Of a stretch of DNA of 33,091 nt, positions 1,138 through 23,906 are shown one piece after another. A program made the position numbers and the translations under genes. Below the pieces are notes generated by a model. The model was not told the origin of the DNA, did no database searches, and was given only the letters and a program-made list of their open reading frames with translations. The stretch's first letter is position 1, and each line of letters starts with the position of its first letter. The stretch comes from Patescibacteria group bacterium (GTDB taxonomy: Bacteria > Patescibacteriota > Minisyncoccia > UBA6257 > UBA9933): contig JBBTVF010000033.1 of assembly GCA_038063335.1 (NCBI GenBank), positions 1-33,091 on the forward strand, given 5' to 3'.

Positions 1138-1167
1138 TTGACATATCAACTGTATTGTCTTTATAAT
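1138..1167 (+). promoter_or_regulatory. Sigma-70-type promoter, probably giving a leaderless or near-leaderless mRNA for the 1176 ORF
   Basis: TTGACA (1138-1143), 18-nt spacer, TATAAT (1162-1167). The ATG at 1176 lies only 8 nt after the -10 box and no Shine-Dalgarno sequence is present. Confidence 0.5.
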
Positions 1168-1175: not shown

Positions 1176-2204
1176 ATGGAAAATATAAATAACATAATTA
1201 AAGATTTAATCTTCGGACTTTCTCCGCGTCAAAAAGACATCATTGAACAAAGATTCGGCTTGAACGGCAAAAGGCGTACCTTAGCGGCAGTTGGCAAGAA
1301 ATACGGTTTGACTCGTGAGAGGGTGAGGCAGATTGAAAGCGCCGGTTTAAAATTAATAAGTGAAAAGCTTAAAAAAAATCAGGCAGCCGGCAGAATGATT
1401 GAAGATGCCATTAGCCACCTTAAAAAAGTCGGCGGCGTGATGAGAGAAAATGTTTTTCTTAATGAATTAAGGGGATTATTTAAAACCAACGCAATTACCG
1501 GCGAACAGTTAAAATTTATTTTTGAAGTTTTTAAAACTCCTCTTCATCAAATTGAAGAAAAGAATTTTTACAGCTTTTGGTATTTAAATAAGGAATCACG
1601 GAAGTTTGCTTTTGATTTTATCAATAAGCTTGAAAAATTTATTGCCGATAAAAAAGAAGAACTCATTACTCATAAAAAATTTGATGAACTTTTTGCGCAA
1701 GTCGTTAAATCCCACGATGTTAAAGACTTCATCGCTTTAAATTACGCTTCAATTTCAAAAAAATTCGGCGTGAGTCCTTTCGGCGATTTTGGTTTGACGC
1801 GCTGGGAAGAAATAACTCCCAAAACCGCCCGGGCGAGAGCTTATTTGATTTTAAAAAAACACAGCGCTCCGTTGCATTTTAAAGAAATCGCGAAAAAAAT
1901 AAACGAGCTTAAACTTAATAAACGTCGCGCTCTTTATCAAACTATTCATAACGAATTGATAAAAGACCCGAGATTCGTGTTGGTGGGACGGGGCATGTAC
2001 GGGCTTTCGGAATTCGGTTTGAAACCGGGCATTGCCAAAGACGTTATTGCGCGAGTTTTGAAAACCAAGGGGCCGCTTTATAAAGAAGAAGTGGTTGATT
2101 TGGTAAAACAGGAAAGATTCCTCAAGGACAATACTATTTTACTTAATCTCCAAAGTAAAAAATATTTCAAAAGACTGGCTGACGGACGATATCATATTAA
2201 ATAG
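1176..2204 (+). CDS. HTH protein with an N-terminal sigma-70 region-4-like domain and a C-terminal HARE-HTH-like domain
   Basis: RQKDIIEQRFGLNGKRRTLAAVGKKYGLTRERVRQIESAGLKLI resembles sigma-70 region 4. PLHFKEIAKKINEL...ELIKDPRFVLVGRGMYGL resembles HARE-HTH (RpoE-delta-like). Confidence 0.55.
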   Translation: MENINNIIKDLIFGLSPRQKDIIEQRFGLNGKRRTLAAVGKKYGLTRERVRQIESAGLKLISEKLKKNQAAGRMIEDAISHLKKVGGVMRENVFLNELRGLFKTNAITGEQLKFIFEVFKTPLHQIEEKNFYSFWYLNKESRKFAFDFINKLEKFIADKKEELITHKKFDELFAQVVKSHDVKDFIALNYASISKKFGVSPFGDFGLTRWEEITPKTARARAYLILKKHSAPLHFKEIAKKINELKLNKRRALYQTIHNELIKDPRFVLVGRGMYGLSEFGLKPGIAKDVIARVLKTKGPLYKEEVVDLVKQERFLKDNTILLNLQSKKYFKRLADGRYHIK

Positions 2205-2246: not shown

Positions 2247-3596
2247 ATGCCGGATTTTTTAATTTCTTATCAATCTTTGATTGTTTCCGTTGTCATAACG
2301 GTTGTTCTTTTGGCGCTGGCAATAGCGCTTTTTAAGATATTTGAACAGGTGTGGCTTTTTTATAAGCAGTCACTTTATAAAAAAGCCATTAAATGGACAG
2401 TTTTAGAATTAAGAATTCCTCGCGAGGTTTTGAAAACGCCGAAGGCGATGGAGCAATTTTTTATAAATTTACACAGTTTAAAGAATGAGCCCGGAAATTT
2501 TTTAGAAAAATATACTGATGGCGAAGTGACTTTATGGTGGAGTTTAGAAATAGCGAGCCTTGGCGGTAAAATCCATTTTTATATCAGAACGCCAAAAAAA
2601 CATAGAAAAATGTTTGAAGCAGGGATGCACGCGCAATATCCCAATATTGAAATTATTGAGACCGAAGATTATCTTAATAAATTACCTAGTTCTACAAAAG
2701 AATTTTATGAGAGCAATGAGAATATTTTCGGCAGTGAGTTTAATTTAGGTAAAAAGGATTTTTATCCCATTATTACTTATGACCATTTTTTTAATCAACC
2801 CGCAAAACTTGATGACCAAAAACAAGTAATAGTTGACCCTCTTTCAGCGCTTATTGAAGTTTTGGCCGGAATTCACAAAGAAGAAAACGTTTTTATTCAG
2901 ATTTTAATCGCGCCGCTTAATGATGATTGGAAAAATGAGGGGAGAGATTTTGTAAATAAAAAACTCGGCAAAGAAGAAAAGAAGAAAGGAGGATTCAATC
3001 AAATTATCTACGAATGGACAAAGAATTTTTTATGGGCGCCGACAGAATACCCGGTTTGGTCAGAACCGAAAGAACCGGCAAAAAAAGAGCCGGCGAATAT
3101 CAGCGACTACGAAGCCATGAAAGAGATTGAAAATAAACTTTCTAAACACGGTTTTGAAAGCTTAATTCGTTTTCTTTATATTGCTCCAAATTCCATTTAT
3201 AGTACAAATTTTGCGAGAAAGGGTATTTTGGGCGCTTTTAACCAATATGCTTCTTCTTTAAATTTTTTCAAAAATAATCCCTTGGTTGAAACCAGAACAA
3301 GATGGATATATTCTCCTCATGTTTTTGTTAAGCAAAGAGTTGAAGCGAGAAAACAACGATTATTATATAATTTTAAGAATAGATTATTTCCGGAAAAACT
3401 GTCCTTCGGCAAATTTATGACGTCGCATATTTTTGATTTTAATAATAAATCAAAAACTTCAGTTTTTGTCACTTCTGAACTCGCGACTATTTATCATATC
3501 CCGGCTGAACAGGTTTTGACATCTCCACATATTGAACGGGCGGAAAGCAAAAAAATGGGTCCGCCGGCCGGTTTGCCGATATTTGAAGAGGAATAA
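2247..3596 (+). CDS. Membrane-anchored protein of unknown function, first gene of the long operon
   Basis: 449 aa with an N-terminal TM helix (LIVSVVITVVLLALAIALF). 5-nt gap to the next ORF. No recognisable catalytic motif. Confidence 0.6.
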   Translation: MPDFLISYQSLIVSVVITVVLLALAIALFKIFEQVWLFYKQSLYKKAIKWTVLELRIPREVLKTPKAMEQFFINLHSLKNEPGNFLEKYTDGEVTLWWSLEIASLGGKIHFYIRTPKKHRKMFEAGMHAQYPNIEIIETEDYLNKLPSSTKEFYESNENIFGSEFNLGKKDFYPIITYDHFFNQPAKLDDQKQVIVDPLSALIEVLAGIHKEENVFIQILIAPLNDDWKNEGRDFVNKKLGKEEKKKGGFNQIIYEWTKNFLWAPTEYPVWSEPKEPAKKEPANISDYEAMKEIENKLSKHGFESLIRFLYIAPNSIYSTNFARKGILGAFNQYASSLNFFKNNPLVETRTRWIYSPHVFVKQRVEARKQRLLYNFKNRLFPEKLSFGKFMTSHIFDFNNKSKTSVFVTSELATIYHIPAEQVLTSPHIERAESKKMGPPAGLPIFEEE

Positions 3597-3601
3597 ATTT
3601 T

Positions 3602-4114
3602 ATGATATTGACTTTGCAAATTATTTTAATTGTTTTAATACTAGCGTTAGTTGTCGCCATTATTTGGTTTATGGCAAAATCTTTTCCGTTCAGGCCTAAA
3701 TTAAATCCTTCGGGAACCCTTAATCTTCTCAAGGGCTTAAAAGTGACGGATGGTAAATATAGGCAGATAATCAAGCATAGAGAATTAATTCATAAAAAAT
3801 GGAATAAATTATTGGAAAGAATAAAATCCGGCGACGAGCGCGATTTGCGTTTGGCAATTATTGAAGCTGATAGTTTAGTTGACGAGATTTTTAAAGAGCA
3901 CGGTCATCCGGGCAAAGATATGGGTGAGCGGTTGAAATCAATCCATCCGAGCGAGATAGATAATCTCAATGATTTATGGGAAGCTCATAAAATCAGAAAC
4001 AGACTTGCCCACGAAGCCGATTTTCATTTATCAGTAGAAGAAGCTAAAAAAATAATTGAAATTTACCACAGGACAATAGAAGAATTATTAAATATTGAAT
4101 TGGAATTGATATGA
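3602..4114 (+). CDS. Single-pass membrane protein of unknown function
   Basis: 170 aa with an N-terminal TM helix (ILIVLILALVVAIIWF) and a helical C-terminal domain. Its stop overlaps the next start (ATGA at 4111-4114). Confidence 0.55.
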   Translation: MILTLQIILIVLILALVVAIIWFMAKSFPFRPKLNPSGTLNLLKGLKVTDGKYRQIIKHRELIHKKWNKLLERIKSGDERDLRLAIIEADSLVDEIFKEHGHPGKDMGERLKSIHPSEIDNLNDLWEAHKIRNRLAHEADFHLSVEEAKKIIEIYHRTIEELLNIELELI

Positions 4115-5760
4115 ATCAAGAAACCAAAACCTGCCAAAATTGCAAACAAAACTTCACTATAGAACCTGAAGATTTTGAGTTTTACGAAAAAGTGAAGGCG
4201 AAACCGCCGAAGTATTGTCCTGACTGCCGCCAACAAAAAAGATTGGCTTTTTGGCCTTTTGCGAAATTTAATAAGCGAAAGTGTGATTTAAGCGGAGAAA
4301 GCATAATTTCAATTTATCCTTCAAGCGCGCATTTTCCGGTTTATAAATCCAGCAATTGGAATTCCGATGCATGGGAACCGCCATTTTTGGATTATGACGC
4401 TTCAAGGAATTTTTTTGAACAGCTTTATGAATTGCAAAAAAAATCTCCTAAGCCTCATCAATTTGGGTCCAATAATCAAAATTGCGATTATTGCGACGAT
4501 GTCTGGGATTCAAAAAATTGCTATCTCTGCCGTTCTTTGGGCAGTTGCGAAAATCTTTCATATTCATATAGGGTGCTAAATTCCCGCGATTCTTATGATT
4601 TAACTTATTGCTATGATTCCGAGTTGTCCTACGACTGCACCTATTGTTTTAAGCTTTATAATGTAAAGTACGCTTTTGATTCGCGCGATAGTTTTGATAG
4701 CGCGTTTTTATATGATTGCCGAAATGTGAGAAATTGTTTTATGTGCTGGAATTTGCGCAATAAAGAATATCATATTTTAAACCAACCGTATTCCAAGGAA
4801 GAATATTTCCAGAAATTAAAAGAATATAATTTGAATTCTTGGAATACGGTTCAATTTTTAAAGAAAAATTTTGAAAAAAAGATTAAAGAAGAAGCGGTTC
4901 ATAAAAACAATTTCAACACGAAAACCATAAATTCAAGCGGTAATTATTTAAGCGAGTGTAAAAAATGCAAAAATTCTTATTTTTTGGAAAAATCGGAAAA
5001 TTGTTCTTATTATTTCAGAGGAGCGATGAATAAGGACGTAAACGACTCGACTGGAGTTTATAAAGGAGAATTAGCGTATGACGTGAATCAAATGACAGAA
5101 ATATACAATATGAAGCATTCCAATTATTGTATTAATTGCCGCGACAGCGAATATCTTGATTCGTGCGTCGGGTGCGAGAATTGTTTCGGGTGTGTTGGTC
5201 TTAAACATAAAAGCTATTCCATTTTAAATAAACAATATTCCAAAGAGGATTATTATGATTTGGTTGTCAAAATCAAGAAAGCGATGGAAGACGACGGTTC
5301 TTATGGAGAATTTTTTCCTAATAAGATGGCGCATGGCGGATATAATCTTTCGCTTGCTGGAATATTTTTCCCGAAAACAAAAGAAGAAGTTTCTAAATTA
5401 GAAGGAAATTGGGAAGAGCTGGAAGATACGGATATATCCAATATGAGTTTTAGTCCATTTGTGGACGATATTTCAACCGTAGAAAGCGAGATGGCCGGAA
5501 AAGTCTTTTTGTGCGAAGAAACCGAAAGGCCTTTTAATTTTAAAAAAGAAGAAATTGAATTTTATAAAAAACATTCCATTCCTTTGCCCCATCACTATCC
5601 TGATGTGCGCACCAAAAGCAGGATAAAAAATTTATTCTGCATCAATCCGGTTGAGGCCAAATGCGCGTTTTGTCAAAAAGATATTATTTCTTATTATCCC
5701 AAAGAATGGGAATACAAAAAAATTACTTGTAATGAATGTTATTTAAAGGAAGTAGTGTAA
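4111..5760 (+). CDS. Cysteine-rich zinc-ribbon repeat protein, paralog 1
   Basis: 549 aa. N-terminal CxxC...CPDCR ribbon, two internal modules ending in C.NCF.C..L..K.Y.ILN..YSKE(E/D)Y, and a C-terminal EIEFYKKHSIPLP...CxxC ribbon. Clear paralog of 5771, 9429 and 11441. Confidence 0.8.
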   Translation: MNQETKTCQNCKQNFTIEPEDFEFYEKVKAKPPKYCPDCRQQKRLAFWPFAKFNKRKCDLSGESIISIYPSSAHFPVYKSSNWNSDAWEPPFLDYDASRNFFEQLYELQKKSPKPHQFGSNNQNCDYCDDVWDSKNCYLCRSLGSCENLSYSYRVLNSRDSYDLTYCYDSELSYDCTYCFKLYNVKYAFDSRDSFDSAFLYDCRNVRNCFMCWNLRNKEYHILNQPYSKEEYFQKLKEYNLNSWNTVQFLKKNFEKKIKEEAVHKNNFNTKTINSSGNYLSECKKCKNSYFLEKSENCSYYFRGAMNKDVNDSTGVYKGELAYDVNQMTEIYNMKHSNYCINCRDSEYLDSCVGCENCFGCVGLKHKSYSILNKQYSKEDYYDLVVKIKKAMEDDGSYGEFFPNKMAHGGYNLSLAGIFFPKTKEEVSKLEGNWEELEDTDISNMSFSPFVDDISTVESEMAGKVFLCEETERPFNFKKEEIEFYKKHSIPLPHHYPDVRTKSRIKNLFCINPVEAKCAFCQKDIISYYPKEWEYKKITCNECYLKEVV

Positions 5761-5770
5761 TCTGTGAATT

Positions 5771-7549
5771 ATGAACCAAGAAACAAAAATTTGTCAAAAC
5801 TGCAAACAAAACTTCGTTATTGAGCCCGAAGATTTTGAGTTTTACGCCAAAATCAAAGTCCCGGCGCCGACTTTTTGTCCGGAGTGTAGGATGCAAAGAA
5901 GATTGTCTTTCAGGAACGAGAAAATATTGTATCGTAGAAAATGCGATTCATGCCAGAAAGATATTGTAAGTATTTATCATAAAGACAGCCCTTATACGGT
6001 CTATTGCCAGAAATGTTGGTGGTCGGACGATTGGGATTCTTTGGCGTACGGGAGAAAATATGATTTTGGAAAGCCGTTTTTTTCTCAATTTCAAGATATT
6101 TTAAAATCTGTTCCCAGACTTTGTTTAATAAACGTCAATTCGGTAAATTCGGAATACACCCATTTGGCCGCGGACAGCAAAGATTGCTATTTTCTTTTTG
6201 AAAGCTCTAATAATGAAAGAAGCGATTATAGTTATTGGATGCAACAGAGTAAAGATTGCGTTGATTGTTCTTTTGTAAATAATAGCGAGCTTTGCTATGA
6301 AACTATCATAGCTTGGAATTGCTATAAACTTTTTTACTCAAAAGAATGCCGTGATTGCGCAGACGGTACGTTTCTTTTAGATTGCATCGGTTGTACTGAT
6401 TGTTATGGCTGTGTTGGGTTGAGAAATAAAAAATATCATATTTTTAATCAGCCGCAGAGCAAAGAAGATTATTTAAAAATTGTAGGCGAAAAGAAAAAAG
6501 AGATGCTGGACGGTAACATTGATAAATTAAAAGACGAGTTTATTAAATTTGCGCTTAAATATCCTAATAAATACGCCTATATACAAAAATCAGTGGATAG
6601 CAGCGGAGATTATTTATTAAATACAAAAAAATGTACTTTCTGTTTTCATGGATATGACGCTGAGGATTGTAAATACGGGTATCATGTGTGGCGGAATTCA
6701 AAAGATAATATGGATGTTTGTACAGTGGGGAGAGACGCCGAATTAGTATATGAAACTATAAATACTGGTATGGGCATTTATAATGTAAAATTTGGAATTC
6801 AAAATTGGAATGGAAACAGGGATTTGCAATATTCTGAAGCATGTTCGGGTTCTCAAAATTTGTTCGGATGTACGGCTTTAAGAACTAAAGAATATTGTAT
6901 TTTAAATAAGCAATATACGAAAGAAGAATATGAAGATTTAGTTTCTAAAATAATGAAGCATATGAATGATAATCCGTATACAGATAAGAATGGCCATGTC
7001 TACAAATATGGCGAATTTTTTCCACCTGAAATTTCATTTTTTGCCTACAATGAAACTTCGGCTAATGACCATTTTCCACTTATTAAAGAATCCGCTGAGA
7101 CAAAAGGTTATTATTGGAAAGAAAAAGAAAAAAGAAGTATTTCTCCAACTTTAAAGCATGACGAATTATCAAAATATAATAGTGACATCCCAGATTCGTT
7201 GACTGGTGAAATTATATCGTGTAAAAACGAAGGCAGAGAAACATATTGCACGGAAGCGTTTAAAGTTATTGCTAGAGAATTGGAGTTTTATAGGAAAATG
7301 AATTTGCCACTTCCCGAATTTTGCCCCAACTGCCGTCATTACCAGAGACTCAAACAAAGAAATCCATTAAAACTCTGGCATAGGAAATGTCAATGTAATG
7401 GAAATGAATCGGAAAACGGTATTTATACAAATACTATCGCTCACCAACACGGAACAGAACCCTGTCCCAATGAGTTTGAAACCACCTATTCACCAGACAG
7501 AAAAGAGATAGTATATTGCGAGCGTTGTTATCAACAGGAAGTCGTATAA
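5771..7549 (+). CDS. Cysteine-rich zinc-ribbon repeat protein, paralog 2
   Basis: 592 aa with the same architecture. The first ~80 nt are nearly identical to paralog 1 and the C-terminal third is very similar to paralog 4. Confidence 0.8.
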   Translation: MNQETKICQNCKQNFVIEPEDFEFYAKIKVPAPTFCPECRMQRRLSFRNEKILYRRKCDSCQKDIVSIYHKDSPYTVYCQKCWWSDDWDSLAYGRKYDFGKPFFSQFQDILKSVPRLCLINVNSVNSEYTHLAADSKDCYFLFESSNNERSDYSYWMQQSKDCVDCSFVNNSELCYETIIAWNCYKLFYSKECRDCADGTFLLDCIGCTDCYGCVGLRNKKYHIFNQPQSKEDYLKIVGEKKKEMLDGNIDKLKDEFIKFALKYPNKYAYIQKSVDSSGDYLLNTKKCTFCFHGYDAEDCKYGYHVWRNSKDNMDVCTVGRDAELVYETINTGMGIYNVKFGIQNWNGNRDLQYSEACSGSQNLFGCTALRTKEYCILNKQYTKEEYEDLVSKIMKHMNDNPYTDKNGHVYKYGEFFPPEISFFAYNETSANDHFPLIKESAETKGYYWKEKEKRSISPTLKHDELSKYNSDIPDSLTGEIISCKNEGRETYCTEAFKVIARELEFYRKMNLPLPEFCPNCRHYQRLKQRNPLKLWHRKCQCNGNESENGIYTNTIAHQHGTEPCPNEFETTYSPDRKEIVYCERCYQQEVV

Positions 7550-7597
7550 AAGCAACGCGAAGTCTCGCCGAAGCTTTATGCGAAGGCGGACGAAAAG

Positions 7598-7606
7598 TGT
7601 TATAAT
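7598..7606 (+). promoter_or_regulatory. Extended -10 element (TGtTATAAT) upstream of the ATPase gene
   Basis: TG at 7598-7599 and TATAAT at 7601-7606, inside the only sizeable (90-nt) intergenic gap of the operon. Confidence 0.35.
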
Positions 7607-7639
7607 ATAGAAGTGGCATAATAAAGTGTTTTTAAATAA

Positions 7640-9097
7640 ATGACAGATAAAGTTAAAATTATAAGATACGCGTCGCCGCCTTCGGACTTACCGATTTACG
7701 GACAAGTTGACCCCCAAGAGGTTTGTTTTTTTGGACGCACAAATTATGAATCGGAATTTGAAAGCAAAAGGTATGTTTTTGGCATCAAAAGGAATGATCG
7801 CAGACGTCATTTCTATATTGTTGGGAAATCCGGAGTGGGGAAGTCAAAAATGCTTGAGTTAATGATTAGGCAAGATATTAATTACGGTCATGGATTATGC
7901 TTGATGGACCCGCATGGCGATATTATAGAAGACATTCTTGATTTTATTCCAGAAAACAGAATAAAAGACGTGGTTTTGATTGATCCATCTGACACAAATT
8001 GGCCAGTTTCATTTAATCCTCTGCAAAATGTGGCGCCGGAAATGAAACATCAAGTAACGCAAGGATTGATTGAGGTGATGGAAAAACAATTCGGCGCCAA
8101 TTGGACGCCGCGATTAGAGCACGTTTTTAGATTTACTTGTTTGGCTTTGCTTGATTATCCGGGCGCTACAATGAGGGGAATGATTTTAATACTCACGGAT
8201 AGAAATTATCGTCAGAAAGTTGTGGAACATATTCAAGATGAAATGGTAAAGCGGTTTTGGGCGATTGAATTTGCGGACTGGTCGGAAAAATTTGATACAG
8301 AAGCCATTATTCCTTTAGTTAATAAACTTGGCCAGTTTTTATCCAATCCATTATTGCGTTATATTTTCGGCCAAAAAGAAAATAAAGTTGACCTTGAAAA
8401 AATAATGAATGAGCAGAAAATTCTGCTTATAAATTTATCAAAAGGGAAATTAGGAGAAGAAAATTCCAGTTTTTTCGGCTCAATGTTTGTGACAAAAATT
8501 TATCAGGCCGGTATGGCAAGATCGGCGATTAAAGAAAGAGAAAGAAAAGATTTTTATTTTTATGTTGATGAGTTTTACAATGTGGTAACGGATACTTTTA
8601 TCAATATTCTTACTGAAGCGAGAAAATACGGTTTGGCTTTAATAGTGGCGCATCAGTATCGCGCTCAGCTTCAGCCGCAAATAATGGCGACTTTTTTGGG
8701 TAATGTAGCAACAATGGTAATTTTTCGGCTTGGCGGCGATGACGCGCTTGTTTTTGAAAAAGAAATGACGCCGGTTTTCAAGGCGAAAGATATGATAAAT
8801 CTGGGAATGCAGGAATTTTACATTAAGATGACTATTGACGGCGGCACGGCTGACCCGTTTTCCGCCGAAACTTTGAAAATTTTGCCGCCAACGCATCCGT
8901 CTTATAAAGATAAAATTATTGAATATAATCGTCAGATTTATTGTTCATCAATTGAAGAAGTAAAAAGAAGAATTGCGGAAGAAGAGGGATTGGTTACGAA
9001 GCCGTCTTCCACCGGAAACTCCGATGTTTCAATTTCAAAGGTCGAAAATAAATCTTCCGCGGAAATTTCATTGCCGTCGGAAGAACCAATAGTGTAA
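7640..9097 (+). CDS. TraD/TrwB/VirD4-like P-loop NTPase (coupling-protein-type ATPase) without its own TM segment
   Basis: Walker A GKSGVGKS followed by CLMDPHGD; Walker B FYFYVDEF; ARKYGLALIVAHQY. Layout resembles the T4SS coupling-protein / FtsK-HerA superfamily. Confidence 0.7.
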   Translation: MTDKVKIIRYASPPSDLPIYGQVDPQEVCFFGRTNYESEFESKRYVFGIKRNDRRRHFYIVGKSGVGKSKMLELMIRQDINYGHGLCLMDPHGDIIEDILDFIPENRIKDVVLIDPSDTNWPVSFNPLQNVAPEMKHQVTQGLIEVMEKQFGANWTPRLEHVFRFTCLALLDYPGATMRGMILILTDRNYRQKVVEHIQDEMVKRFWAIEFADWSEKFDTEAIIPLVNKLGQFLSNPLLRYIFGQKENKVDLEKIMNEQKILLINLSKGKLGEENSSFFGSMFVTKIYQAGMARSAIKERERKDFYFYVDEFYNVVTDTFINILTEARKYGLALIVAHQYRAQLQPQIMATFLGNVATMVIFRLGGDDALVFEKEMTPVFKAKDMINLGMQEFYIKMTIDGGTADPFSAETLKILPPTHPSYKDKIIEYNRQIYCSSIEEVKRRIAEEEGLVTKPSSTGNSDVSISKVENKSSAEISLPSEEPIV

Positions 9098-9101
9098 TAA
9101 T

Positions 9102-9410
9102 ATGGTATTTATCCACGTTACATATTCCGATGAAGAAGAAGCAAAAAAAGTAGGCAAGCTTATTCTTGAAAAAGGATTGGCAGGTACGGTTGATTTATTA
9201 AGGGCAAATTCTTTGTATCAGGGAGATGAAGGGTTGGTTAGCCAGCCGGGCATAACTGTTTTAATAAAGACCGTAGAAGCCAAAGTGCAGGAGATTGAAA
9301 ATTTAATTCACGAGCAAAATCATCAAAAAATTCCTCCTTGCATAGCCGTAATTAATATTTTTAGAGTTAATAAGGAATATAAGGAGTGGTTGCAGACGCG
9401 CATTAAATAG
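9102..9410 (+). CDS. cutA: CutA1-like divalent-cation tolerance protein
   Basis: 102 aa. The pattern VTYSDEEEAKKVGKLILEKGLAGTV...SLYQ...VLIKT...V..IE.LI...H matches the CutA fold family as remembered. Confidence 0.6.
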   Translation: MVFIHVTYSDEEEAKKVGKLILEKGLAGTVDLLRANSLYQGDEGLVSQPGITVLIKTVEAKVQEIENLIHEQNHQKIPPCIAVINIFRVNKEYKEWLQTRIK

Positions 9411-9428
9411 AATATCCGAATAATTTTT

Positions 9429-11177
9429 ATGCCCAAAACCCCGCAATTTAATAAGGCACTGGCGGAGATTTTAGATAATATTCAACCCCACAGTAAAACT
9501 TGCAAACAATGCAGCGATAGTTTTGACATCTTTATTGAGGACATTGAGATGTATAAGAAACTGCAAGTGCCTCCGCCGACATTGTGTCCGAATTGCCGGA
9601 TACAGAGAAGATTCGGTTTTTATAATAATATTTTAAAATTTCACAAAAAAGAATGTGCCGCGCATGTTGGTGAAAACGTAATCTCAACCTTTCATCCGGA
9701 AAGCCCGTATAAAATTTTTGATTTAAAGCATTGGTGGTCTGACAAATGGGGAGGGGAAGATTATGGTCGGGATTATGAATTTAATAAACCATTTTTTGAA
9801 CAATTAAAGGAATTGATGCTCAATGTTCCGCAACCGGCAATTACGCATTATTGGAAAAATGTGATAGACAGCCCTTATACGATTTCTATTATTGATTCAA
9901 AAAATTGTTACTATTCTTCGGTTGGCGGATGGTTGGAAAATAGCCATTATATGTATTGGACAGGTCCCGCAAGAGATTCATTGGATTGTTTAAACAGCCA
10001 AGATTTGGAAAATTGTTATGAAAATATTTATAGCGATAAGATGTATAATTGTAAGTTTTGCGAGGATTCAACAGAATGCATTGACAGTATTTTTTTACGT
10101 AGTTGTAAAAATTGCCAGAATTGTTTTGGGTGCGTCAATTTAAGGAATAAGCAACACTGTTTTTTCAACGAACAACTTTCCAAAGAAGATTATTTTCAAA
10201 AAATGGCGGAAATAAATCTATGGAATAGAGACGTTCTAATTGAATATAAAAATAAGTTTAAAGAATTTTTAAAAAATATCATAAGGAGAAATATTCAAAG
10301 CGATAGAAGGAATATAAATTCCATTGGCGATAATTTGGAAAAAGCCAAAAATTGCTTTATGGTTTTTAGAGGAAGCGGGCTTACTAATGGCATTGAAAAT
10401 CTTCGTTATGTTCAAGATGTTTTTGATTGCAAAGATTCGGCGGATATGTATATAGTGGGTCCGAATTTAAGTTTATGTTATGAATTGGTTGAAGCATACG
10501 AAGGCTCTAATATAAAATTTTCTTATTTCATTAAGAATGGTTTAAATGTTGAATATTGTCTTGCTTGCCATAATTGCCAAAATTGTTTCGGCTGTATCGG
10601 TTTGCGCAATAAAAAATTTCATATCTTTAATAAGCCATATTCAGAAGAAGAGTATTGGCAAGTTTTGGATAAAGTTAAAAGTGAAATGTTAAAAGTTGGC
10701 GAATACGGAGAATTTTTTCCATTAACAATGGCTTTGCACGCTTATAACGACACTTACGCTTCTATTGAATTTCCTTTAACAGATGAAGAAATTAAAACGC
10801 GAGAGTGGATATATTTTAATAATGAGGAAGAAGCGGATTTAACTAAAATAGATATAATAAACACTAAGAATGTGCCGATAGATATAAAAGATGTTGATGA
10901 TAGCATTTTACAAAAAGCCATAATTTGCGAAAAAACTGGTAAGCCGTTTAGGATAATCAAAGCCGAACTGGATTTTTACAGAAAGAATAATTTGCCAATT
11001 CCGACTGTTCATCCAAATGAAAGAATCTTGGCGCGTCTTAGGAAAAGAAATCCGTCAAAATTATGGAAAATGAATTGTAAAAAATGCGAAAATGAAATGT
11101 ACACCGCGTATCCGCCGGAAAAACAGAAAGAATACAAAATATTTTGTGAGGATTGTTATTTAAGGGAGGTGGTATAG
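9429..11177 (+). CDS. Cysteine-rich zinc-ribbon repeat protein, paralog 3
   Basis: 582 aa with the same N-terminal and C-terminal ribbons (MYKKLQVPPPTLCPNCRIQRR and LDFYRKNNLPIP) and two C.NC.NCFGC..LRNK..(C/H)(F/I)FN modules. Confidence 0.8.
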   Translation: MPKTPQFNKALAEILDNIQPHSKTCKQCSDSFDIFIEDIEMYKKLQVPPPTLCPNCRIQRRFGFYNNILKFHKKECAAHVGENVISTFHPESPYKIFDLKHWWSDKWGGEDYGRDYEFNKPFFEQLKELMLNVPQPAITHYWKNVIDSPYTISIIDSKNCYYSSVGGWLENSHYMYWTGPARDSLDCLNSQDLENCYENIYSDKMYNCKFCEDSTECIDSIFLRSCKNCQNCFGCVNLRNKQHCFFNEQLSKEDYFQKMAEINLWNRDVLIEYKNKFKEFLKNIIRRNIQSDRRNINSIGDNLEKAKNCFMVFRGSGLTNGIENLRYVQDVFDCKDSADMYIVGPNLSLCYELVEAYEGSNIKFSYFIKNGLNVEYCLACHNCQNCFGCIGLRNKKFHIFNKPYSEEEYWQVLDKVKSEMLKVGEYGEFFPLTMALHAYNDTYASIEFPLTDEEIKTREWIYFNNEEEADLTKIDIINTKNVPIDIKDVDDSILQKAIICEKTGKPFRIIKAELDFYRKNNLPIPTVHPNERILARLRKRNPSKLWKMNCKKCENEMYTAYPPEKQKEYKIFCEDCYLREVV

Positions 11178-11231
11178 AGTAGCCATTAGTGAGTGGAAAA
11201 GGTCGAAATAAAAAAAATAATATAATAAAAT

Positions 11232-11441
11232 ATGAAAAATAAGACGAAAATCAAAACATTTTTTTATATGATTCAAAATCAGGAAAAAAGGGAAAAGGAA
11301 TTGAATGATTTCCTTTCTCAAAATGGAATAGTTGTAGAGCAAATATTGCAGTCTGCCGCAACTGGCTCTGTAAAAATAAAAAACCCCCAATATTTAGATG
11401 CGGGCGTAATTATAACGATAGTGTATCACGAAACTTTATAA
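11232..11441 (+). CDS. Small hypothetical protein
   Basis: 69-aa ORF fills the gap between paralogs 3 and 4, and its stop overlaps the next ATG at 11441. Alternative start at MIQNQ. Only a weak resemblance to small Cse60-like proteins. Confidence 0.4.
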   Translation: MKNKTKIKTFFYMIQNQEKREKELNDFLSQNGIVVEQILQSAATGSVKIKNPQYLDAGVIITIVYHETL

Positions 11442-13225
11442 TGAATTCTGAAACTAAAATTTGTCAAAATTGTAAAAATCAGCTTACTATAGAACCCGAG
11501 GATTTTGAATTTTACGATAAAATTAAAGTTCCGGCGCCGACTTTTTGTCCGGAGTGCAGACTAATACGGCGGATGAATTTTAAAAACGAACGTTCTTTTT
11601 ATAGACGAAAATGTGATTTATGCGCCAAATCAATAATAGCTATTTATCCCCAAAATACTTCTTTTTCAGTTTATTGTCCCGCTTGTTGGTGGTCTGATAA
11701 ATGGGACGCGAAAGATTACGGTTTTATTTATAATTTTTCAAAACCTTTTTTTACTCAATTTAAAGAATTATTAAATAAAGTTCCAAGAATTAGTTTATCA
11801 GTAGATTATTTACGAATGATTAATAGTGAATATTCTAATTATACCGGACCATTAAAAAATTGTTATTTAATAATACAAGCCGAAGGAGATGAAAATTGCC
11901 TTTATTCATCGTCAATATTTAATTCAAAAGATTCTGCTGACTGTTTAAGGGTGGCAGATGTTCAAAATTCTTATGAATTATTTAATTGTGAAAAATGCTA
12001 CAATACATTTTTTTCTAATAATTGTTTTGAATGTATAGATGTTTATTTTTCCAAAGATTTAAAAAATTGTTCAAATTGTTTTGGTTGTTCAAATTTAAGG
12101 CATAAGAATTATCATATTTTTAATAAACAATATTCAAAAGAAGAATATTGTAAATTTATTAAAAATTTTAATTCAGGTTCTTTAAATGAAATTCAAAATT
12201 ATAAAGAAAAATTAAAACAATTTTGGATTCAATTTCCAAATAAATATTTTTCCGGATTGTTTAACAATAATGTTTCTGGAGATTATATAGCCAATAGTAA
12301 AAATGTTTTTTATTCATTTGAAATCGGCGGCGGAGAAAATTTAAAATATTGTTTTCAAGCGCATATGTCTATTAGTAAAGATAGTTATGATTACGGAGAT
12401 TGGGGGAATAACGCGTCTTTAATGTATGAATCAATAAATTGCGGAGAAAATATTAATAATACTAAATTTTCTTTTGGCTCATGGATTGACAGTAATTTAC
12501 AATATTGCGATACGGTTATTTCATCTGATTATATGTTTGGATGTAGTCAAATACGTAAAGGTAAATACTGCATCCTCAACAAACAATACACTAAAGAAGA
12601 ATACGAACAATTAGTCCCCCAAATCATAGAACATATGAATAATATGCCGTATATAGATAAAAAAGGCAGAATATACAAATACGGAGAATTCTTCCCCGCA
12701 GAACTCTCTCCTTTCGCCTATAACGAAACAATCGCCCAAGAATACTTCCCTCTAACCAAAGAACAAGCCATAGAACAAGGATATAGCTGGAAAGAATCGG
12801 AAGAAAGGAATATCCAGATAACCATCAAATCAGAAGATCTTCCCGACTATATCAAAGACGTAGATGATACAATTATAAAAGAAATCATTCAATGCGCTCA
12901 TAAAGGTGAATGTAATGAACAATGCACCACCGCCTTCAAAATCATCCCTCAAGAGCTTGAATTCTACAAAAAGATGAATCTTCCCCTACCCAGACTATGT
13001 CCCAACTGCCGTCATTACCAGAGACTCAAACAAAGAAACCCCTTGAAACTATGGCATAGGAAGTGTATGTGCAATGGAAATAAATCAGAAAACGGCATCT
13101 ATACAAACACTATTGCTCACCAACATGGAGATTCCGCTTGTCCCAATGAGTTTGAAACCACCTATTCCCCAGACAGAAAAGAGATAGTTTATTGCGAGAA
13201 GTGTTATCAGCAGGAGGTTGTGTAA
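11441..13225 (+). CDS. Cysteine-rich zinc-ribbon repeat protein, paralog 4
   Basis: 594 aa, closest to paralog 2. Runs of up to 38 nt are identical with 7327-7549 in the 3' region. Confidence 0.8.
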   Translation: MNSETKICQNCKNQLTIEPEDFEFYDKIKVPAPTFCPECRLIRRMNFKNERSFYRRKCDLCAKSIIAIYPQNTSFSVYCPACWWSDKWDAKDYGFIYNFSKPFFTQFKELLNKVPRISLSVDYLRMINSEYSNYTGPLKNCYLIIQAEGDENCLYSSSIFNSKDSADCLRVADVQNSYELFNCEKCYNTFFSNNCFECIDVYFSKDLKNCSNCFGCSNLRHKNYHIFNKQYSKEEYCKFIKNFNSGSLNEIQNYKEKLKQFWIQFPNKYFSGLFNNNVSGDYIANSKNVFYSFEIGGGENLKYCFQAHMSISKDSYDYGDWGNNASLMYESINCGENINNTKFSFGSWIDSNLQYCDTVISSDYMFGCSQIRKGKYCILNKQYTKEEYEQLVPQIIEHMNNMPYIDKKGRIYKYGEFFPAELSPFAYNETIAQEYFPLTKEQAIEQGYSWKESEERNIQITIKSEDLPDYIKDVDDTIIKEIIQCAHKGECNEQCTTAFKIIPQELEFYKKMNLPLPRLCPNCRHYQRLKQRNPLKLWHRKCMCNGNKSENGIYTNTIAHQHGDSACPNEFETTYSPDRKEIVYCEKCYQQEVV

Positions 13226-13262
13226 GTTTGCAAAAATATTTATGATAAATTATAATAAATAT

Positions 13263-13613
13263 ATGAAAAATTATTATTATATTTCGGCAATAATTAAATA
13301 TCTTACCGGATTGTTGGAAATTGTTTTGGGAGCGAGGGTAATTTTGAAATTTTTGGGCGCCAGTTCAAAGGCGCTGATTGTGGAATTGCTTTATAAAACA
13401 ACCGATTTCATAACGGCTCCGTTTAAATTCATATTCCCGAATGTTTATCTTGATAAGGGAGTAATTGATTTTACAACTCTTTCCGCGATGCTCGGATATT
13501 TGATATTGGTATTGGCGATACTGAAATTTTTAAGGCTTGTTTTAATCAGGCCGTTGGAAGACGACAAACCGAAAATAGATAAAATAAGCAAGCCTCCTTT
13601 TATAAATCGTTAA
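13263..13613 (+). CDS. YggT-family small membrane protein
   Basis: Hydrophobic protein with a YggT-like pattern (LLEIVLGARVILKFLGA...TDFITAPFKFIFP...GVIDFTTLSAMLGYLIL). The tracked ORF starts at 13218, but the ATG at 13263 avoids overlapping paralog 4. Confidence 0.5.
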   Translation: MKNYYYISAIIKYLTGLLEIVLGARVILKFLGASSKALIVELLYKTTDFITAPFKFIFPNVYLDKGVIDFTTLSAMLGYLILVLAILKFLRLVLIRPLEDDKPKIDKISKPPFINR

Positions 13614-15286
13614 GCTCCTTCTATCGCTTTTTTAATGGCTTCTTTTAATTCTTCTATTTGATTTTCGTTTATTGATTTTTTGGCGAATTCTTTTATTGTC
13701 GGTTCTTTTTGTTCCGGCGATTTTTTTATAAAATCAGATTTTTTTAATTCTTCCAGCGAAATTTCTTTTTTTAAAGGCGTTTTAATTTCTTCCGCTTTGA
13801 TTGCCCCTCCGGTTTTTTCAATAAAAGTTTTTCGTCGCGGCGGTTCAAATTCTATGCCGATTTCTCCCAAATGGCCGGCGTGCGTGAATTTTTTAAAACC
13901 TTCTCTTCCAAAAGCCGGCTTAGTTCCTCTAATTTCCCGCCCTTCATTTTTTTCGTCGCTGAATTTTCTTTCTATTATTGGTCTTTCCGTTGCTAATCCG
14001 CTCCATCTGGAAATTTCTTCTTCAACCTCGCGTTTTGGCTTGGAGTACAATTTACGCGACATTTCAATAACCTCTTCATGATTATTGTCGCGCGCCGTTA
14101 CGGCAAGAGGCGGCAGCGTGTTGGCAGAGAATGGTCGGCTGGTAACACCGTCAACCATTAATTTCAAATAAATTTGACGATTGGGCAAATTAACAACATC
14201 TTCAATGGTAAATTCCGGCTCCAGTTCTTTTTCTAAAAAATCAGCGTCCGCGGCGCCGATACGAAAAATTACCATTGTTCCGACGTTGCCGAAAATGGCG
14301 TCTCGCACAACCGTTGAATCTTTAGTCGCCAGCTGGCCGACATATTGGTGCGCGATAATCAAGTTTAACCGGTATTTTCTGGCCTCGGAAAGGATATTGG
14401 CGAACGATTCGGTGACGAAATTCTGAAATTCATCAACATAAAGATAAAAGTCTTTTCTTTCGGATTCCGGAATTCTTACTCTTTCCATCGCCGCCAATTG
14501 GATTTTCGTGATAATCATCGCTCCCAGAAGCGCGGCATTGTCTTCTCCAATTCTTCCTTTTGAAAGATTAACTAAAAAGATTTTTTCGCTGTTCATTATT
14601 TCAGGAATATTGATGGTGCTTTTTGGCTGACCGACTATGTTTCTGACGAGCGAAGTTGAAAGAAATTGTCCGACTTTGTTTTGGATAGGAACGATAGCTT
14701 CATTTCGGAATTGGTCGCGCCATGTTTCGTATTCATTTATCCAGAATGATTTTACCACTGGGTCTTTAATATTGGCGATAATTCGTTGGCGATAATCTTT
14801 ATCAACAAGAATTCTCGGTATGCCTAAAAGCGTGGTGCCGGGCGTATCTATTAAAGCTAGAACACAGTTGCTTAAAATGTACTCCATTCTAGCTGACCAG
14901 ACATTCGCCCAGATTTTGGTGAAAATCGCCATTAAATCCGAAGATACTAAATGTTTGTATTTCAGGTCCGAGACTTCAAGAACATTGAATCCTATCGGGT
15001 GTTCGGCGTCTATCGGATTAAAATAAACAACGTCTTTGAGCCGTTCTTTGGGGATTCTCTTCATAATCGTTTCAACAAACTCGCCGTGCGGGTCTACGAT
15101 ACAAACTCCCCGGCCATTAATAATGTCTTGAAGGGCCACGTTAAAAAGCATGGTGGTTTTACCGGTGCCGGTTTTTCCGATGACGTACATATGCTGGCGG
15201 CGGTCAACGGTTTTGATGCCAAAAGCGCGGTCCTTGTTGCGGAAGTTTGTTTTGGCGAATACGGTGATGTCTTTAATGGTTTCCAT
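13610..15286 (-). CDS. Second TraD/TrwB/VirD4-like P-loop NTPase, paralog of 7640-9097, with a long charged C-terminal tail
   Basis: Walker A GKTGTGKT, CIVDPHGE, Walker B FYLYVDEF, ARKYRLNLIIAHQY. Collinear with the first ATPase over about 430 aa. Confidence 0.7.
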   Translation of the reverse strand: METIKDITVFAKTNFRNKDRAFGIKTVDRRQHMYVIGKTGTGKTTMLFNVALQDIINGRGVCIVDPHGEFVETIMKRIPKERLKDVVYFNPIDAEHPIGFNVLEVSDLKYKHLVSSDLMAIFTKIWANVWSARMEYILSNCVLALIDTPGTTLLGIPRILVDKDYRQRIIANIKDPVVKSFWINEYETWRDQFRNEAIVPIQNKVGQFLSTSLVRNIVGQPKSTINIPEIMNSEKIFLVNLSKGRIGEDNAALLGAMIITKIQLAAMERVRIPESERKDFYLYVDEFQNFVTESFANILSEARKYRLNLIIAHQYVGQLATKDSTVVRDAIFGNVGTMVIFRIGAADADFLEKELEPEFTIEDVVNLPNRQIYLKLMVDGVTSRPFSANTLPPLAVTARDNNHEEVIEMSRKLYSKPKREVEEEISRWSGLATERPIIERKFSDEKNEGREIRGTKPAFGREGFKKFTHAGHLGEIGIEFEPPRRKTFIEKTGGAIKAEEIKTPLKKEISLEELKKSDFIKKSPEQKEPTIKEFAKKSINENQIEELKEAIKKAIEGA

Positions 15287-15304
15287 CCCTCACCCTTCAA
15301 GCAT
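15285..15304. repeat. Left arm of the 20-bp perfect inverted repeat bracketing the GIY-YIG gene
   Basis: ATCCCTCACCCTTCAAGCAT is the exact reverse complement of 15559-15578. Confidence 0.9.
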
Positions 15305-15556
15305 TAAAGAATTGTAGAGGCGGCTCTTCAAAGAAGAGAAGCCTTTGGCAAATTGCTTTAATCTTTTTTCTCTTATTAACGCGTCCTCTTTTGATTTATA
15401 TGATTCAAAATATATTAGTTCCATAGGTCTTATATTTTTTGTAGATTGTACCATGCCTTGATTATGTTTTTCCATTCTTTCTTTAAGATTTTCGGCAAAA
15501 CCGATATAAAAACTATTATCTTTTTTTGACCTTAATAAATAAACATGGAAAAACAT
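15290..15556 (-). CDS. Stand-alone GIY-YIG nuclease-domain protein
   Basis: 88 aa. VYLLRSKKDNSFYIGFAENLKERMEKHN...ALIREKRLK is the GIY-YIG / UPF0213-type motif set. Confidence 0.8.
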   Translation of the reverse strand: MFFHVYLLRSKKDNSFYIGFAENLKERMEKHNQGMVQSTKNIRPMELIYFESYKSKEDALIREKRLKQFAKGFSSLKSRLYNSLMLEG

Positions 15557-16935: not shown

Positions 16936-17346
16936 ATGATATTTTTTATTTTACTTTTTGCGCTTTCTATTATTGGCGTTAGTGAAACCGCTTATTTAAT
17001 TCGTAAAAGAATGCTTGCTGAAGCGCCGGTTTGTCCGATTGGAGGCGGTTGTGAAATGGTGCTTACTAGTAAATATAACAAGATATTCTTCGTTCCCAAT
17101 GATATGCTGGGATTTTTATCTTATGTTATTATGGCGTTTCTTATCGCGTTTTTTGCGATTGGAATTCAACCCGTGGCTTTGTTTATTTCGGCTTTTAAGA
17201 TTTTAGTGGCCGTTGCCTCGCTTATGTCGGTTTTTCTCACTTATATCCAGTGGCGTATTATCCGCGCATGGTGTTTTTGGTGTCTGATGTCGGCGTTTAC
17301 CATTTGGCTTATGGGAGTTATAATATTAATAAACGGAACAATATAA
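16936..17346 (+). CDS. VKOR (vitamin K epoxide reductase) family membrane protein
   Basis: 136 aa with multiple TM helices. Loop cysteines CPIGGGCEMVLTSKY and the active-site CFWC in the last helices. Confidence 0.7.
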   Translation: MIFFILLFALSIIGVSETAYLIRKRMLAEAPVCPIGGGCEMVLTSKYNKIFFVPNDMLGFLSYVIMAFLIAFFAIGIQPVALFISAFKILVAVASLMSVFLTYIQWRIIRAWCFWCLMSAFTIWLMGVIILINGTI

Positions 17347-23879: not shown

Positions 23880-23906
23880 ATAAAAGTTTCAAAGTTTAAA
23901 TAAATT

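Follow-up and report, generated by a model that had tools for sequence, protein, structure and literature searches.

In VirB4 proteins, a membrane-proximal domain at the N-terminus precedes a C-terminal motor that is related to the type IV coupling proteins (T4CPs). In Patescibacteria, 5,713 homologues of the VirD4 type were found in 2,918 of 3,035 genomes (96%), only 148 of them near virB4, and possible exaptation was suggested (PMC12102498, Microb Genom 2025). The passages searched in that report name no partner genes for these orphan homologues, and it describes type IV secretion systems (T4SSs) as widespread in Patescibacteria, with T4CP genes encoded elsewhere. Here we analyze a locus encoding two ATPases that very likely belong to these orphan homologues. 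It lies in a 33,091-nt stretch of contig JBBTVF010000033.1 (assembly GCA_038063335.1, Patescibacteria group bacterium), referred to as the window, whose positions serve as coordinates throughout.

The conserved core of the locus is formed by a sigma region 4/HARE-HTH protein (sigHARE), a membrane protein of the DUF8128 family, a HEPN-like membrane anchor and an ATPase, after which CutA and a second ATPase are often encoded. We hold with good confidence that this core represents a membrane-tethered split motor of the VirB4/VirD4 class with a DNA-binding partner, chromosomal, vertically inherited and nearly universal in its group, and with similar confidence that it is not a conjugation system, a phage or a defence island. 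Genes for large cysteine-rich (Cys-rich) proteins, four of which are found in the window, are frequent but optional operon partners of this core. The window is compared below with 160 related loci mapped by tblastn, 80 of them genome loci anchored on the Cys-rich family and 80 metagenome loci anchored on DUF8128; these loci, designated by L numbers, are not phylogenetically independent.

DUF8128 and ATPase1 probably form a split VirB4-like protein

The core module and the second ATPase are encoded as follows:

1176..2204, forward strand: sigHARE, 342 aa, basic (pI 10), with an N-terminal sigma-70 region 4 helix-turn-helix (HTH) and a C-terminal HARE-HTH domain (Pfam)
2247..3596, forward strand: DUF8128 protein (PF26449), 449 aa, with a transmembrane helix at residues 2-39 and a predicted cytoplasmic domain of about 400 aa that resembles the VirB4 N-domain in shape
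3602..4114, forward strand: single-pass membrane protein, 170 aa, with a transmembrane helix at residues 1-31 and a predicted cytoplasmic HEPN-like helical domain carrying RNxxxH (R132, N133, H137)
7640..9097, forward strand: ATPase1, soluble, 485 aa, VirD4/TraD/TrwB-like P-loop protein (Pfam), probable motor half of the split protein
13610..15286, reverse strand: ATPase2, VirD4/TraD-like, 558 aa, 43% identical to ATPase1, with a Lys/Glu-rich C-terminal tail

Both ATPases exceed the Pfam thresholds for TrwB_AAD_bind (41.7 and 54.2 bits, cut-off 20.5), TraG-D_C (28.0 and 28.9 bits, cut-off 22), T4SS-DNA_transf (22.9 and 28.7 bits, cut-off 20.1) and DUF87. They carry Walker A sequences of the form GK[ST]GxGK[ST] (GKSGVGKS and GKTGTGKT), and the Walker B sequence YVDEF and an AHQY block are present in both, while no hydrophobic window that would correspond to a transmembrane segment is found in either. 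The NCBIfam equivalog models for conjugative coupling proteins (conju_CD1115, SXT_TraD, TraD_Ftype) are matched with 53.8 bits at best, far below the cut-off of 250, and the best PDB sequence match of ATPase1 is a weak one to TrwB (E 0.0016). ATPase1 orthologs are 70-80% identical across the candidate phyla Wolfe-, Azam-, Giovannoni- and Brennerbacteria and are publicly annotated as 'type IV secretion system DNA-binding domain-containing protein' or VirD4.

Three paralogous ATPase classes can be distinguished in the lineage. ATPase1 proteins are about 485 aa long and their genes always follow the anchor gene. ATPase2 orthologs are 60-73% identical, 600-800 aa long and possess long variable Lys/Glu-rich tails. 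In most lineages their genes are co-directional and stand either immediately behind ATPase1 or behind CutA and Cys-rich genes; convergence is peculiar to the close relatives of the window. The third class carries DUF8128 and the motor on one chain. In L002, a 786-aa gene product combines DUF8128 with T4SS-DNA_transf, DUF87 and TraG-D_C, and similar fused paralogs are present in L046 (790 aa) and L067 (921 aa). In the window, DUF8128 (2247-3596) and the motor (7640-9097) are separate genes with other genes between them.

An earlier note on this DNA, made from the sequence alone, had proposed that the membrane proteins encoded upstream may anchor the ATPases, and the fused paralogs, a shared profile and a structural model all support such a role for DUF8128. 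In the database, the 449-aa protein and its relatives carry a precomputed Pfam assignment to PF26449 (DUF8128). The 824-position profile PHROG 5156 spans both halves, with the DUF8128 protein matching positions 53-309 and both ATPases matching positions 393-808 (E 9e-57 for ATPase1 and 2e-60 for ATPase2). When the AlphaFold2 model of the DUF8128 protein (predicted local distance difference test score, pLDDT, 86; predicted template modelling score, pTM, 0.81) is compared with the PDB using Foldseek, the 14 best matches are all TrwK/VirB4 (TrwK of plasmid R388), the best with an E-value of 9e-5 and a probability of 1.0 at a query-normalised template modelling score (TM-score) of only 0.33. At the sequence level, no match of DUF8128 to VirB4 is obtained from the PDB or the Pfam VirB4 N-domain models. 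Because VirB4 consists of an N-domain and a motor, the layout of DUF8128 and ATPase1 corresponds to a split VirB4/T4CP-like ATPase, in which DUF8128, judging from its model, is probably the N-domain and an anchor supplied in trans.

A short motif, PPxxLPI[FY], is found both at the C-terminus of DUF8128 (3555-3590) and at the N-terminus of ATPase1 (7673-7700), where it is at least 90% conserved. This places it precisely where the split protein is divided, and ATPase2 does not have it.

A HEPN-like anchor and sigHARE accompany the motor

The DUF8128 and 170-aa proteins each possess one N-terminal hydrophobic helix and are thus single-pass rather than polytopic. Basic residues follow both helices, and by the positive-inside rule both soluble domains are predicted to be cytoplasmic, on the same side of the membrane as the motor. 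The soluble domain of the 170-aa protein is helical and comprises about 110 aa. Its RNxxxH motif is retained in most of 40 orthologs (R132 in 38, N133 in 37 and H137 in 35), and family members show sub-threshold matches to six Pfam families of the HEPN clan, namely HEPN_Swt1, Hypoth_Ymh, HEPN_RiboL-PSP, DUF4145, Ribonuc_2-5A and HepT-like_2, with best E-values of 0.001-0.003. We therefore describe the protein as HEPN-like, short of an established HEPN protein.

The first gene of the module, sigHARE, lies directly 5' of DUF8128 in 51 of the 52 DUF8128-anchored metagenome loci with enough sequence, while the gene preceding sigHARE varies (secF in 31 of 57 loci, ftsW in 13 of 57, then rplL and others). 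Its Sigma70_r4 (51.4 bits) and HARE-HTH (38.9 bits) domains both score above the Pfam cut-offs, and the ortholog profile matches region 4 of RpoD/SigA in the PDB (E 7e-19). No match to sigma region 2 or 3 is found in Pfam or NCBIfam, where the sigma-model matches of sigHARE are confined to the C-terminal 60 or so positions of the models. The lack of region 2, together with a remainder made up of HARE-HTH, rules out a sigma factor of the sigma-70 family. Since sigHARE always occurs with the motor genes, it may act as a recognition subunit or as a regulator.

The combination of these partners with an FtsK/HerA-class ATPase could also be read as a conflict or defence system specific to the candidate phyla radiation (CPR), with Cys-rich proteins as sensors, the ATPase as a switch, the HEPN-like protein as an RNase effector and the HTH protein as a regulator. 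The HEPN-like RNxxxH motif is consistent with this, as are the copy-number variation and divergence of the Cys-rich paralogs and the rarity of known defence systems in CPR (PMC6509639). The sigma region 4 domain of sigHARE is most similar to that of MzaA from the MZA anti-phage system, a similarity restricted to region 4, and PADLOC matches both ATPases weakly and partially to its mad8 and HerA models (E 1e-14 to 1e-16). PADLOC recognizes no complete system, however, and its models yield no match for DUF8128, the anchor or the Cys-rich proteins. Catalysis by the HEPN-like domain is putative, no relatives of the Cys-rich or DUF8128 families are found among IMG/VR viral contigs, and adjacent mobile-element genes are absent. 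The vertical inheritance, the housekeeping context and the 70-80% conservation of the ATPase are all unlike defence islands. We consider an anti-phage function highly improbable.

Cys-rich genes are frequent but optional partners of the module

The distribution of the Cys-rich genes relative to the motor was analyzed in both sets of loci. An ATPase gene is present in 15 of 16 modules with 8 kb of downstream sequence, the anchor in 13, a Cys-rich gene in 9 and CutA in 4. Conversely, of 38 Cys-rich loci that span 18 kb or more, 17 contain an ATPase gene within 10 kb and 8 contain DUF8128. Chance would be expected to produce roughly 5-8%, an estimate based on about two T4CP homologues per genome (PMC12102498) and an assumed genome size below 1 Mb. 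The orientation of the genes agrees with that of the anchor gene in 233 of 233 cases for Cys-rich genes and in 93 of 96 for ATPase genes. Linkage between the Cys-rich family and the ATPase across genomes, for which the earlier note had suggested a neighbourhood analysis, is thus present in about half of the loci and always on the same strand.

Cys-rich genes are inserted at several positions of the module: after DUF8128 (L092, L133, L128), after the anchor (the window, L007, L090), after ATPase1 (L105, L154) and after CutA (L145, L132). They are also located between ATPase paralogs with no DUF8128 nearby (L023, L039, L066, L070, L078). Tandem arrays contain up to nine full-length diverged copies in a single 21.8-kb locus, with a median spacing of 24 nt.

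This pattern has to be weighed against the possibility that the module and the Cys-rich genes are merely two neighbours with unrelated functions. The core machine might then, for example, take up DNA or handle the chromosome at the division site as FtsK does, while an independent cytoplasmic Cys-rich family would have a metal, redox or RNA/protein-binding role, their adjacency reflecting inherited synteny in streamlined genomes. Seven of the 16 modules have no Cys-rich gene nearby, and in 21 of the 38 Cys-rich loci the surrounding 10 kb contain no ATPase; with about half unpaired, the ATPase does not need Cys-rich genes and most members of the family would act apart from it or in trans. In the same database the Cys-rich family is at least eight times as large as the DUF8128 family (more than 7,093 versus 824 clusters at 90% identity). 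The taxonomic ranges also differ, with VirD4-type ATPases in 96% of Patescibacteria genomes (PMC12102498) and the named close Cys-rich homologs, among the matches listed, being of Paceibacteria type only. Moreover, synteny extends to plainly unrelated housekeeping genes, namely secDF, ftsW/rodA and yceG for the module and mreBCD-PBP2 for the arrays, so adjacency alone is weak evidence.

Other features of the arrangement argue against unrelated neighbours. Cys-rich genes are found inside the module, at several positions and at translational-coupling distances (gaps of -4 to 18 nt in the window). ATPase paralogs that lack DUF8128 are flanked by Cys-rich genes as well, in the five loci named above, and strand agreement is 100% in a downstream context that is otherwise very variable. 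We regard two independent neighbours as a possible but rather unlikely explanation, and a functional link between the Cys-rich family and the motor as fairly likely.

Several other genes recur in this context. In 11 loci, among them L023, L029, L039, L040, L066 and L070 (for example L070:9082-9945; also L044:3760-5667), the gene of a short DnaJ protein (287 aa, with a CxxCxGxG zinc domain) separates ATPase1 from a Cys-rich gene. Recurrent neighbours of the arrays are DnaK (6 loci), cysteinyl-tRNA synthetase (9) and ComEC (5). In L002:1-9908 (Liptonbacteria), a three-gene Cys-rich array lies right after mreB-mreC-mreD-PBP2, and the fused DUF8128-ATPase gene is located 8 kb further on.

The Cys-rich proteins form an apparently lineage-specific family

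Four Cys-rich genes are found in the window:

4111..5760, forward strand: Cys-rich paralog 1, 549 aa, 31 Cys, its start overlapping the previous stop by 4 nt
5771..7549, forward strand: Cys-rich paralog 2, 592 aa, 36 Cys, with domain architecture A-B-B'-M-A'
9429..11177, forward strand: Cys-rich paralog 3, 582 aa, 29 Cys, with several zinc-ribbon cysteines lost
11441..13225, forward strand: Cys-rich paralog 4, 594 aa, 34 Cys, its 3' 300 nt resembling those of paralog 2

The four proteins align end to end with 36-54% identity and are thus paralogs. Each contains 29-36 cysteines (5.0-6.1%) and 10-13 CxxC pairs, compared to 0-1% Cys in the neighbouring proteins, and none shows a hydrophobic segment, signal peptide or transmembrane helix. 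In paralog 2, an N-terminal double zinc ribbon (residues 8-85) is followed by two central modules (approximately 123-240 and 273-395), a conserved aromatic-rich domain (approximately 400-470) and a second double zinc ribbon (approximately 492-590). Comparison of sub-alignments using hhalign relates the N- and C-terminal double zinc ribbons (A and A') with a probability of 99% and the central modules (B and B') with 99.9%. The central modules comprise about 120 residues and each ends in CFGCxGLRNKxYxIxNKxY[ST]KEEY, while the highly conserved aromatic-rich domain located between B' and A' is characterized by YGEFFP...FAYNET...FPL. In paralogs 1 and 3, several ribbon cysteines are lost. The 3' ends of paralogs 2 and 4 (7247-7549 and 12923-13225) are 78-90% identical at the DNA level, compared with 54% identity for the whole proteins, which suggests gene conversion or a very strong constraint on the C-terminal zinc-ribbon domain.

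An exhaustive profile search identifies 5,248 Cys-rich clusters at 50% identity, 2,321 of them at E<=1e-30, and the best 150 of the 5,248 are almost all 545-600 aa long. At 90% clustering the family has at least 7,093 relatives; those listed are almost all named 'hypothetical protein' and come from Patescibacteria lineages, the named close homologs among the matches listed all being of Paceibacteria type (Parcubacteria). By its sequence distribution, the family thus appears specific to Patescibacteria.

No characterized family is matched in Pfam, NCBIfam, PDB profile or Foldseek searches. Neither of the outcomes that the earlier note had named as refuting its proposal, a lack of conserved linkage to the ATPase or membrane genes and a match to a well-characterised family of unrelated role, is thus observed. 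NCBIfam and PADLOC yield no match at all. The treble-clef family zf_Tbcl (PF13451) matches 19 of 65 Cys-rich members (best E 3.5e-6), with the window proteins below threshold, and covers only the first 40 or so of about 590 residues, corresponding to the CxxC...CPxCR unit. The profile PHROG 15341, of unknown function, is matched at an E-value of 1e-5. The family profile finds no PDB sequence at E<=1. The AlphaFold2 model of paralog 2 (pLDDT 77.5, pTM 0.79) is of low confidence in the central Cys-rich parts, and Foldseek finds nothing in the PDB below E 5; in BFVD only matches of about 66 residues to small phage zinc-ribbon domain proteins are observed. Homology to solved structures beyond zinc-ribbon matches of this length was therefore rejected. 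A literature search on the Cys-rich family, DUF8128 and PF13451 retrieved no description. As for fusion partners, the only case is P0385 (731 aa), in which an N-terminal GNAT acetyltransferase is fused to a Cys-rich protein; this single case, a possible gene-call artefact, was discarded as a functional clue.

Two simple roles can be considered for proteins so rich in cysteine. Secreted, disulfide-rich surface proteins are unlikely in view of the missing signal peptides and transmembrane segments and of CxxC pairs in a zinc-ribbon or treble-clef arrangement. A metallothionein-like metal sink is likewise unlikely, the architecture of about 590 aa being conserved with many invariant residues other than cysteine.

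The tandem arrays raise the further possibility of protein export, in which the ATPases would deliver unfolded Cys-rich paralogs to a channel encoded elsewhere, the paralogs being diversified effectors acting on or in a host cell. Up to nine diverged full-length paralogs in tandem is a pattern usual for effector families, and the extreme C-terminus is strictly conserved as CY-x-x-E-V-[VA]-COOH: the 21 distinct six-residue endings tabulated, which stand for 41 of 65 aligned proteins, all conform to it. The ATPases pass the Pfam threshold for TraG-D_C, the region that recognizes substrates or adaptors, ATPase2 orthologs carry long variable tails, DnaJ and DnaK genes lie beside the arrays, and secDF upstream and VKOR nearby are also compatible with export, as is the occurrence of widespread T4SSs with T4CP genes elsewhere. 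Against this, multi-zinc-ribbon proteins are typically cytoplasmic and poor substrates for unfolding, the Cys-rich proteins possess neither a signal peptide nor a known T4SS signal, and no channel or T4SS gene is found in the window or among recurrent neighbours. Export would also leave the sigma4/HARE-HTH and HEPN-like partners unexplained, and PMC12102498 describes the T4CP as non-essential where the T4SS is essential. Overall, delivery of the Cys-rich proteins as effectors is improbable.

The operon most likely begins at sigHARE and lies among housekeeping genes

The remaining features of the operon and its immediate surroundings are:

1138..1167, forward strand: sigma-70-type promoter, TTGACA-18 nt-TATAAT, a 12/12 match to consensus (consensus match only), ending 8 nt before the ATG at 1176
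9102..9410, forward strand: CutA1-family protein, 102 aa (Pfam CutA1 57.9 bits, cut-off 22.4)
11232..11441, forward strand: small open reading frame (ORF), 69 aa, unconserved
13218..13613, forward strand: YGGT-family two-helix membrane protein, 131 aa (Pfam YGGT 30.8 bits, above threshold)
15290..15556, reverse strand: stand-alone GIY-YIG domain protein, 88 aa (Pfam GIY-YIG 58.4 bits), 3 nt 5' of ATPase2

The ORF list contains ten same-strand ORFs across 2247-13613, in agreement to the base with the coordinates and lengths given earlier, and successive genes are separated by 5, -4, 10, 90, 4, 18, 54, -1 and -8 nt. The minus-strand ATPase2 ORF (13610-15286) converges on the end of the operon and overlaps the YGGT gene by 4 nt. 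Together with these ORFs and gaps, the paralogy, the Walker motifs, the Cys content and the lack of transmembrane segments in the ATPases were all reproduced from the ORF list, Pfam and hydrophobicity. Upstream, a terminator with a 12-bp stem at 889-917, 3' of rplL, closes the rplJL unit. From the sequence, the transcription unit most likely starts one gene before 2247, at 1176, and the perfect promoter only 8 nt from this ATG suggests a leaderless or near-leaderless operon mRNA. The unit is therefore larger at its 5' end and smaller at its 3' end than described before. Of the ten-gene system originally proposed, DUF8128, the anchor and the ATPase stand as conserved members; sigHARE had been missed, the small ORF and the YggT-like gene are not widely conserved, and the Cys-rich genes are optional.

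The CutA and YggT-like identities assigned at first sight are confirmed by Pfam scores above threshold. The CutA1 protein scores 59 against the NCBIfam equivalog, below its cut-off of 120, and CutA is a frequent follower of ATPase1, found in 21 related loci adjoining ATPase1 or Cys-rich genes. Homologs of the YGGT gene are present only in the four nearest relatives (L007, L086, L087, L093) among 162 loci, and it was rejected as a conserved component in favor of a lineage-specific gene. The 69-aa ORF finds no homolog in the 162 related loci by tblastn (best E 0.2) and its 90% cluster has one member; it is probably not a component of the system and possibly not a gene, and was likewise rejected. 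The GIY-YIG gene is kept beside ATPase2 in L087 and lies near Cys-rich genes in L003, L010 and L057, and its membership in the system is uncertain.

The flanks of the window consist of housekeeping genes (rplJL, tRNAs, pheS, tsaD, ftsW, rpoBC), and an Rfam scan of the window detects two tRNAs and nothing else. The rplJ-rplL (40-878) and rpoB-rpoC (20715-27452) genes, normally contiguous, are here about 19.8 kb apart, separated by the two tRNAs, the operon cluster, pheS, VKOR, tsaD, ftsW/rodA and yceG. A vitamin K epoxide reductase (VKOR) homolog is encoded at 16936-17346, 3.3 kb 3' of the Cys-rich cluster, whose proteins lack export signals. VKOR is a DsbB-like extracytoplasmic enzyme that forms disulfides, and its proximity to the cluster is probably a coincidence. 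The sole integrase-family gene of the window encodes a XerC/XerD-type tyrosine recombinase (28867-29694, reverse strand) that forms one minus-strand run with the adjoining def and fmt, a housekeeping-like setting rather than a mobile-element marker. A phage or other mobile element was rejected given the housekeeping flanks and the lack of IMG/VR viral relatives and adjacent mobile-element genes.

VirB4, VirB6, VirB8, relaxase and pilin genes are absent among the window ORFs and the recurrent neighbour families of the 160 loci, a result that covers recurrent families, individual non-recurrent ORFs not all having been scanned. The locus was accordingly rejected as a canonical conjugation or T4SS locus, as the earlier note had already argued for the window from the missing VirB4, VirB6, relaxase and pilin.

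A possible mechanism and its implications

Our best explanation of the locus, adopted tentatively and a little short of an even chance, is a split membrane-tethered motor of the VirB4/VirD4 class with Cys-rich clients, encoded by a chromosomal operon that is vertically inherited in Paceibacteria-type Patescibacteria. DUF8128 would provide one transmembrane helix and a VirB4-N-domain-like cytoplasmic domain for the motor, and the 170-aa protein a second single-pass anchor bearing the HEPN-like domain. ATPase1 would be the soluble P-loop motor, presumably hexameric, and ATPase2 a second, paralogous motor, with sigHARE serving as a nucleic-acid-recognition subunit or as an operon regulator. The four co-transcribed Cys-rich proteins, predicted to be cytoplasmic and to contain multiple zinc ribbons, would most plausibly be clients of the motor, either as substrate-presenting adaptors or as cargo. 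In this scheme, the gene content, the paralogy, the domain architecture, the split and fused forms, the conserved order of genes and the lack of T4SS channel genes are observed, and complex formation, the hexamer, the substrate, the direction of transport, metal binding and the Cys-rich role are points that we infer.

The sigma4/HARE-HTH protein, the HEPN-like motif, the GIY-YIG gene beside ATPase2, the zinc ribbons, the TrwB-like ATPase and the occasional ComEC lean towards nucleic acid or nucleoprotein as the polymer handled, at the inner face of the membrane, with the zinc-ribbon paralogs as binding or adaptor proteins. We prefer this version of the explanation, although taken alone it is rather unlikely. 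No more probable is the broader idea of an as yet unrecognized, lineage-specific translocation or nucleic-acid apparatus of Paceibacteria-type CPR bacteria in which a split motor, tethered to the membrane by DUF8128 and the HEPN-like anchor and guided by sigHARE, has the Cys-rich proteins as its dedicated clients.

Several observations weigh against a motor with Cys-rich clients, in addition to the unpaired loci, the larger size of the Cys-rich family and the housekeeping synteny given above. The likeness of DUF8128 to VirB4 is one of predicted structure with a low TM-score and no sequence-level match, and the HEPN assignment of the 170-aa protein lies below the profile threshold. With a pI of about 6.2, the Cys-rich proteins are mildly acidic, which is atypical for DNA-binding proteins. 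A T4CP homologue of one cultivated Saccharimonadia strain is reported to be non-essential (cited in PMC12102498). Finally, no polytopic channel protein is encoded, so that the motor would have to dock on something encoded elsewhere or work at the inner membrane face. The initial suggestion of a translocation machine with zinc-rich substrates or adaptors consequently holds only in part: the Cys-rich genes are linked to the ATPase in about half of the loci, but the locus, which encodes no channel-forming membrane protein, gives no support to a self-contained machine.

As far as the libraries searched extend, the four-gene module, the split-VirB4 reading of DUF8128, the HEPN-like anchor, the Cys-rich family and its tie to the motor are undescribed. 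The Cys-rich family appears new at the level of both sequence and predicted fold, while the ATPase superfamily and its orphan status were already known. Nearly every Patescibacteria genome encodes about two VirD4-type ATPases away from type IV secretion genes (PMC12102498). Recognizing one such orphan ATPase as a candidate half of a split VirB4-like protein with three fixed partners turns it into a concrete, testable complex. The Cys-rich family, several copies of which stand in tandem at a locus, occupies an appreciable share of the coding sequence in genomes that are reported as reduced. If its tie to the motor is functional, the system offers a testable way to learn how ultra-small symbionts transport DNA or proteins, or how they protect themselves; otherwise, the module and the Cys-rich family represent two separate, well-defined unknowns of CPR biology. 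Should the Cys-rich proteins be dedicated clients, this would account for the near-universal orphan coupling proteins of Patescibacteria. It would also reveal either a novel class of proteins that are secreted or escort nucleic acids, or a novel defence logic in organisms from which most known systems are missing.

Comparison with known systems

Several described protein families resemble individual parts of the locus. The 170-aa protein shares with HEPN proteins (Swt1-like, Ymh, RiboL-PSP, HepT) an Rx4H motif with Asn after Arg, present in 35 of 40 orthologs, but it is anchored in the membrane, and its gene belongs to a core operon and not to a toxin-antitoxin or defence locus. In the Cys-rich proteins, the N-terminal CxxC...CPxCR unit resembles the treble-clef/zinc-ribbon family zf_Tbcl (PF13451), whereas the overall layout A-B-B'-M-A', the duplicated central module and the YGEFFP...YNET domain are unmatched in Pfam, NCBIfam and PDB sequences and folds.

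The modelled shape of DUF8128 resembles VirB4/TrwK, at the low TM-score given above, and in the fused paralogs DUF8128 precedes the motor with an N-terminal transmembrane helix, as in VirB3-VirB4 fusions. In contrast to VirB4, the two halves are located on separate genes in the window, the motor is closer to T4CPs and no VirB3, VirB6 or VirB8 partners are present. The T4CPs VirD4, TraD and TrwB share with the locus ATPases the P-loop domain of the FtsK-HerA superfamily, the Walker A and B motifs and the conserved Gln block, and four Pfam models pass. Unlike them, the locus ATPases have no transmembrane domain on their own chain, and the gene is chromosomal, core and highly conserved, with no relaxase or mating-pair-formation genes nearby. 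Partners such as DUF8128, a HEPN-like anchor and a sigma4/HARE-HTH protein are known from no described T4CP. The closest counterparts are the orphan VirD4-type homologues of Patescibacteria (PMC12102498), which are almost certainly the same genes and to which the present analysis adds the module and the link to the Cys-rich family.

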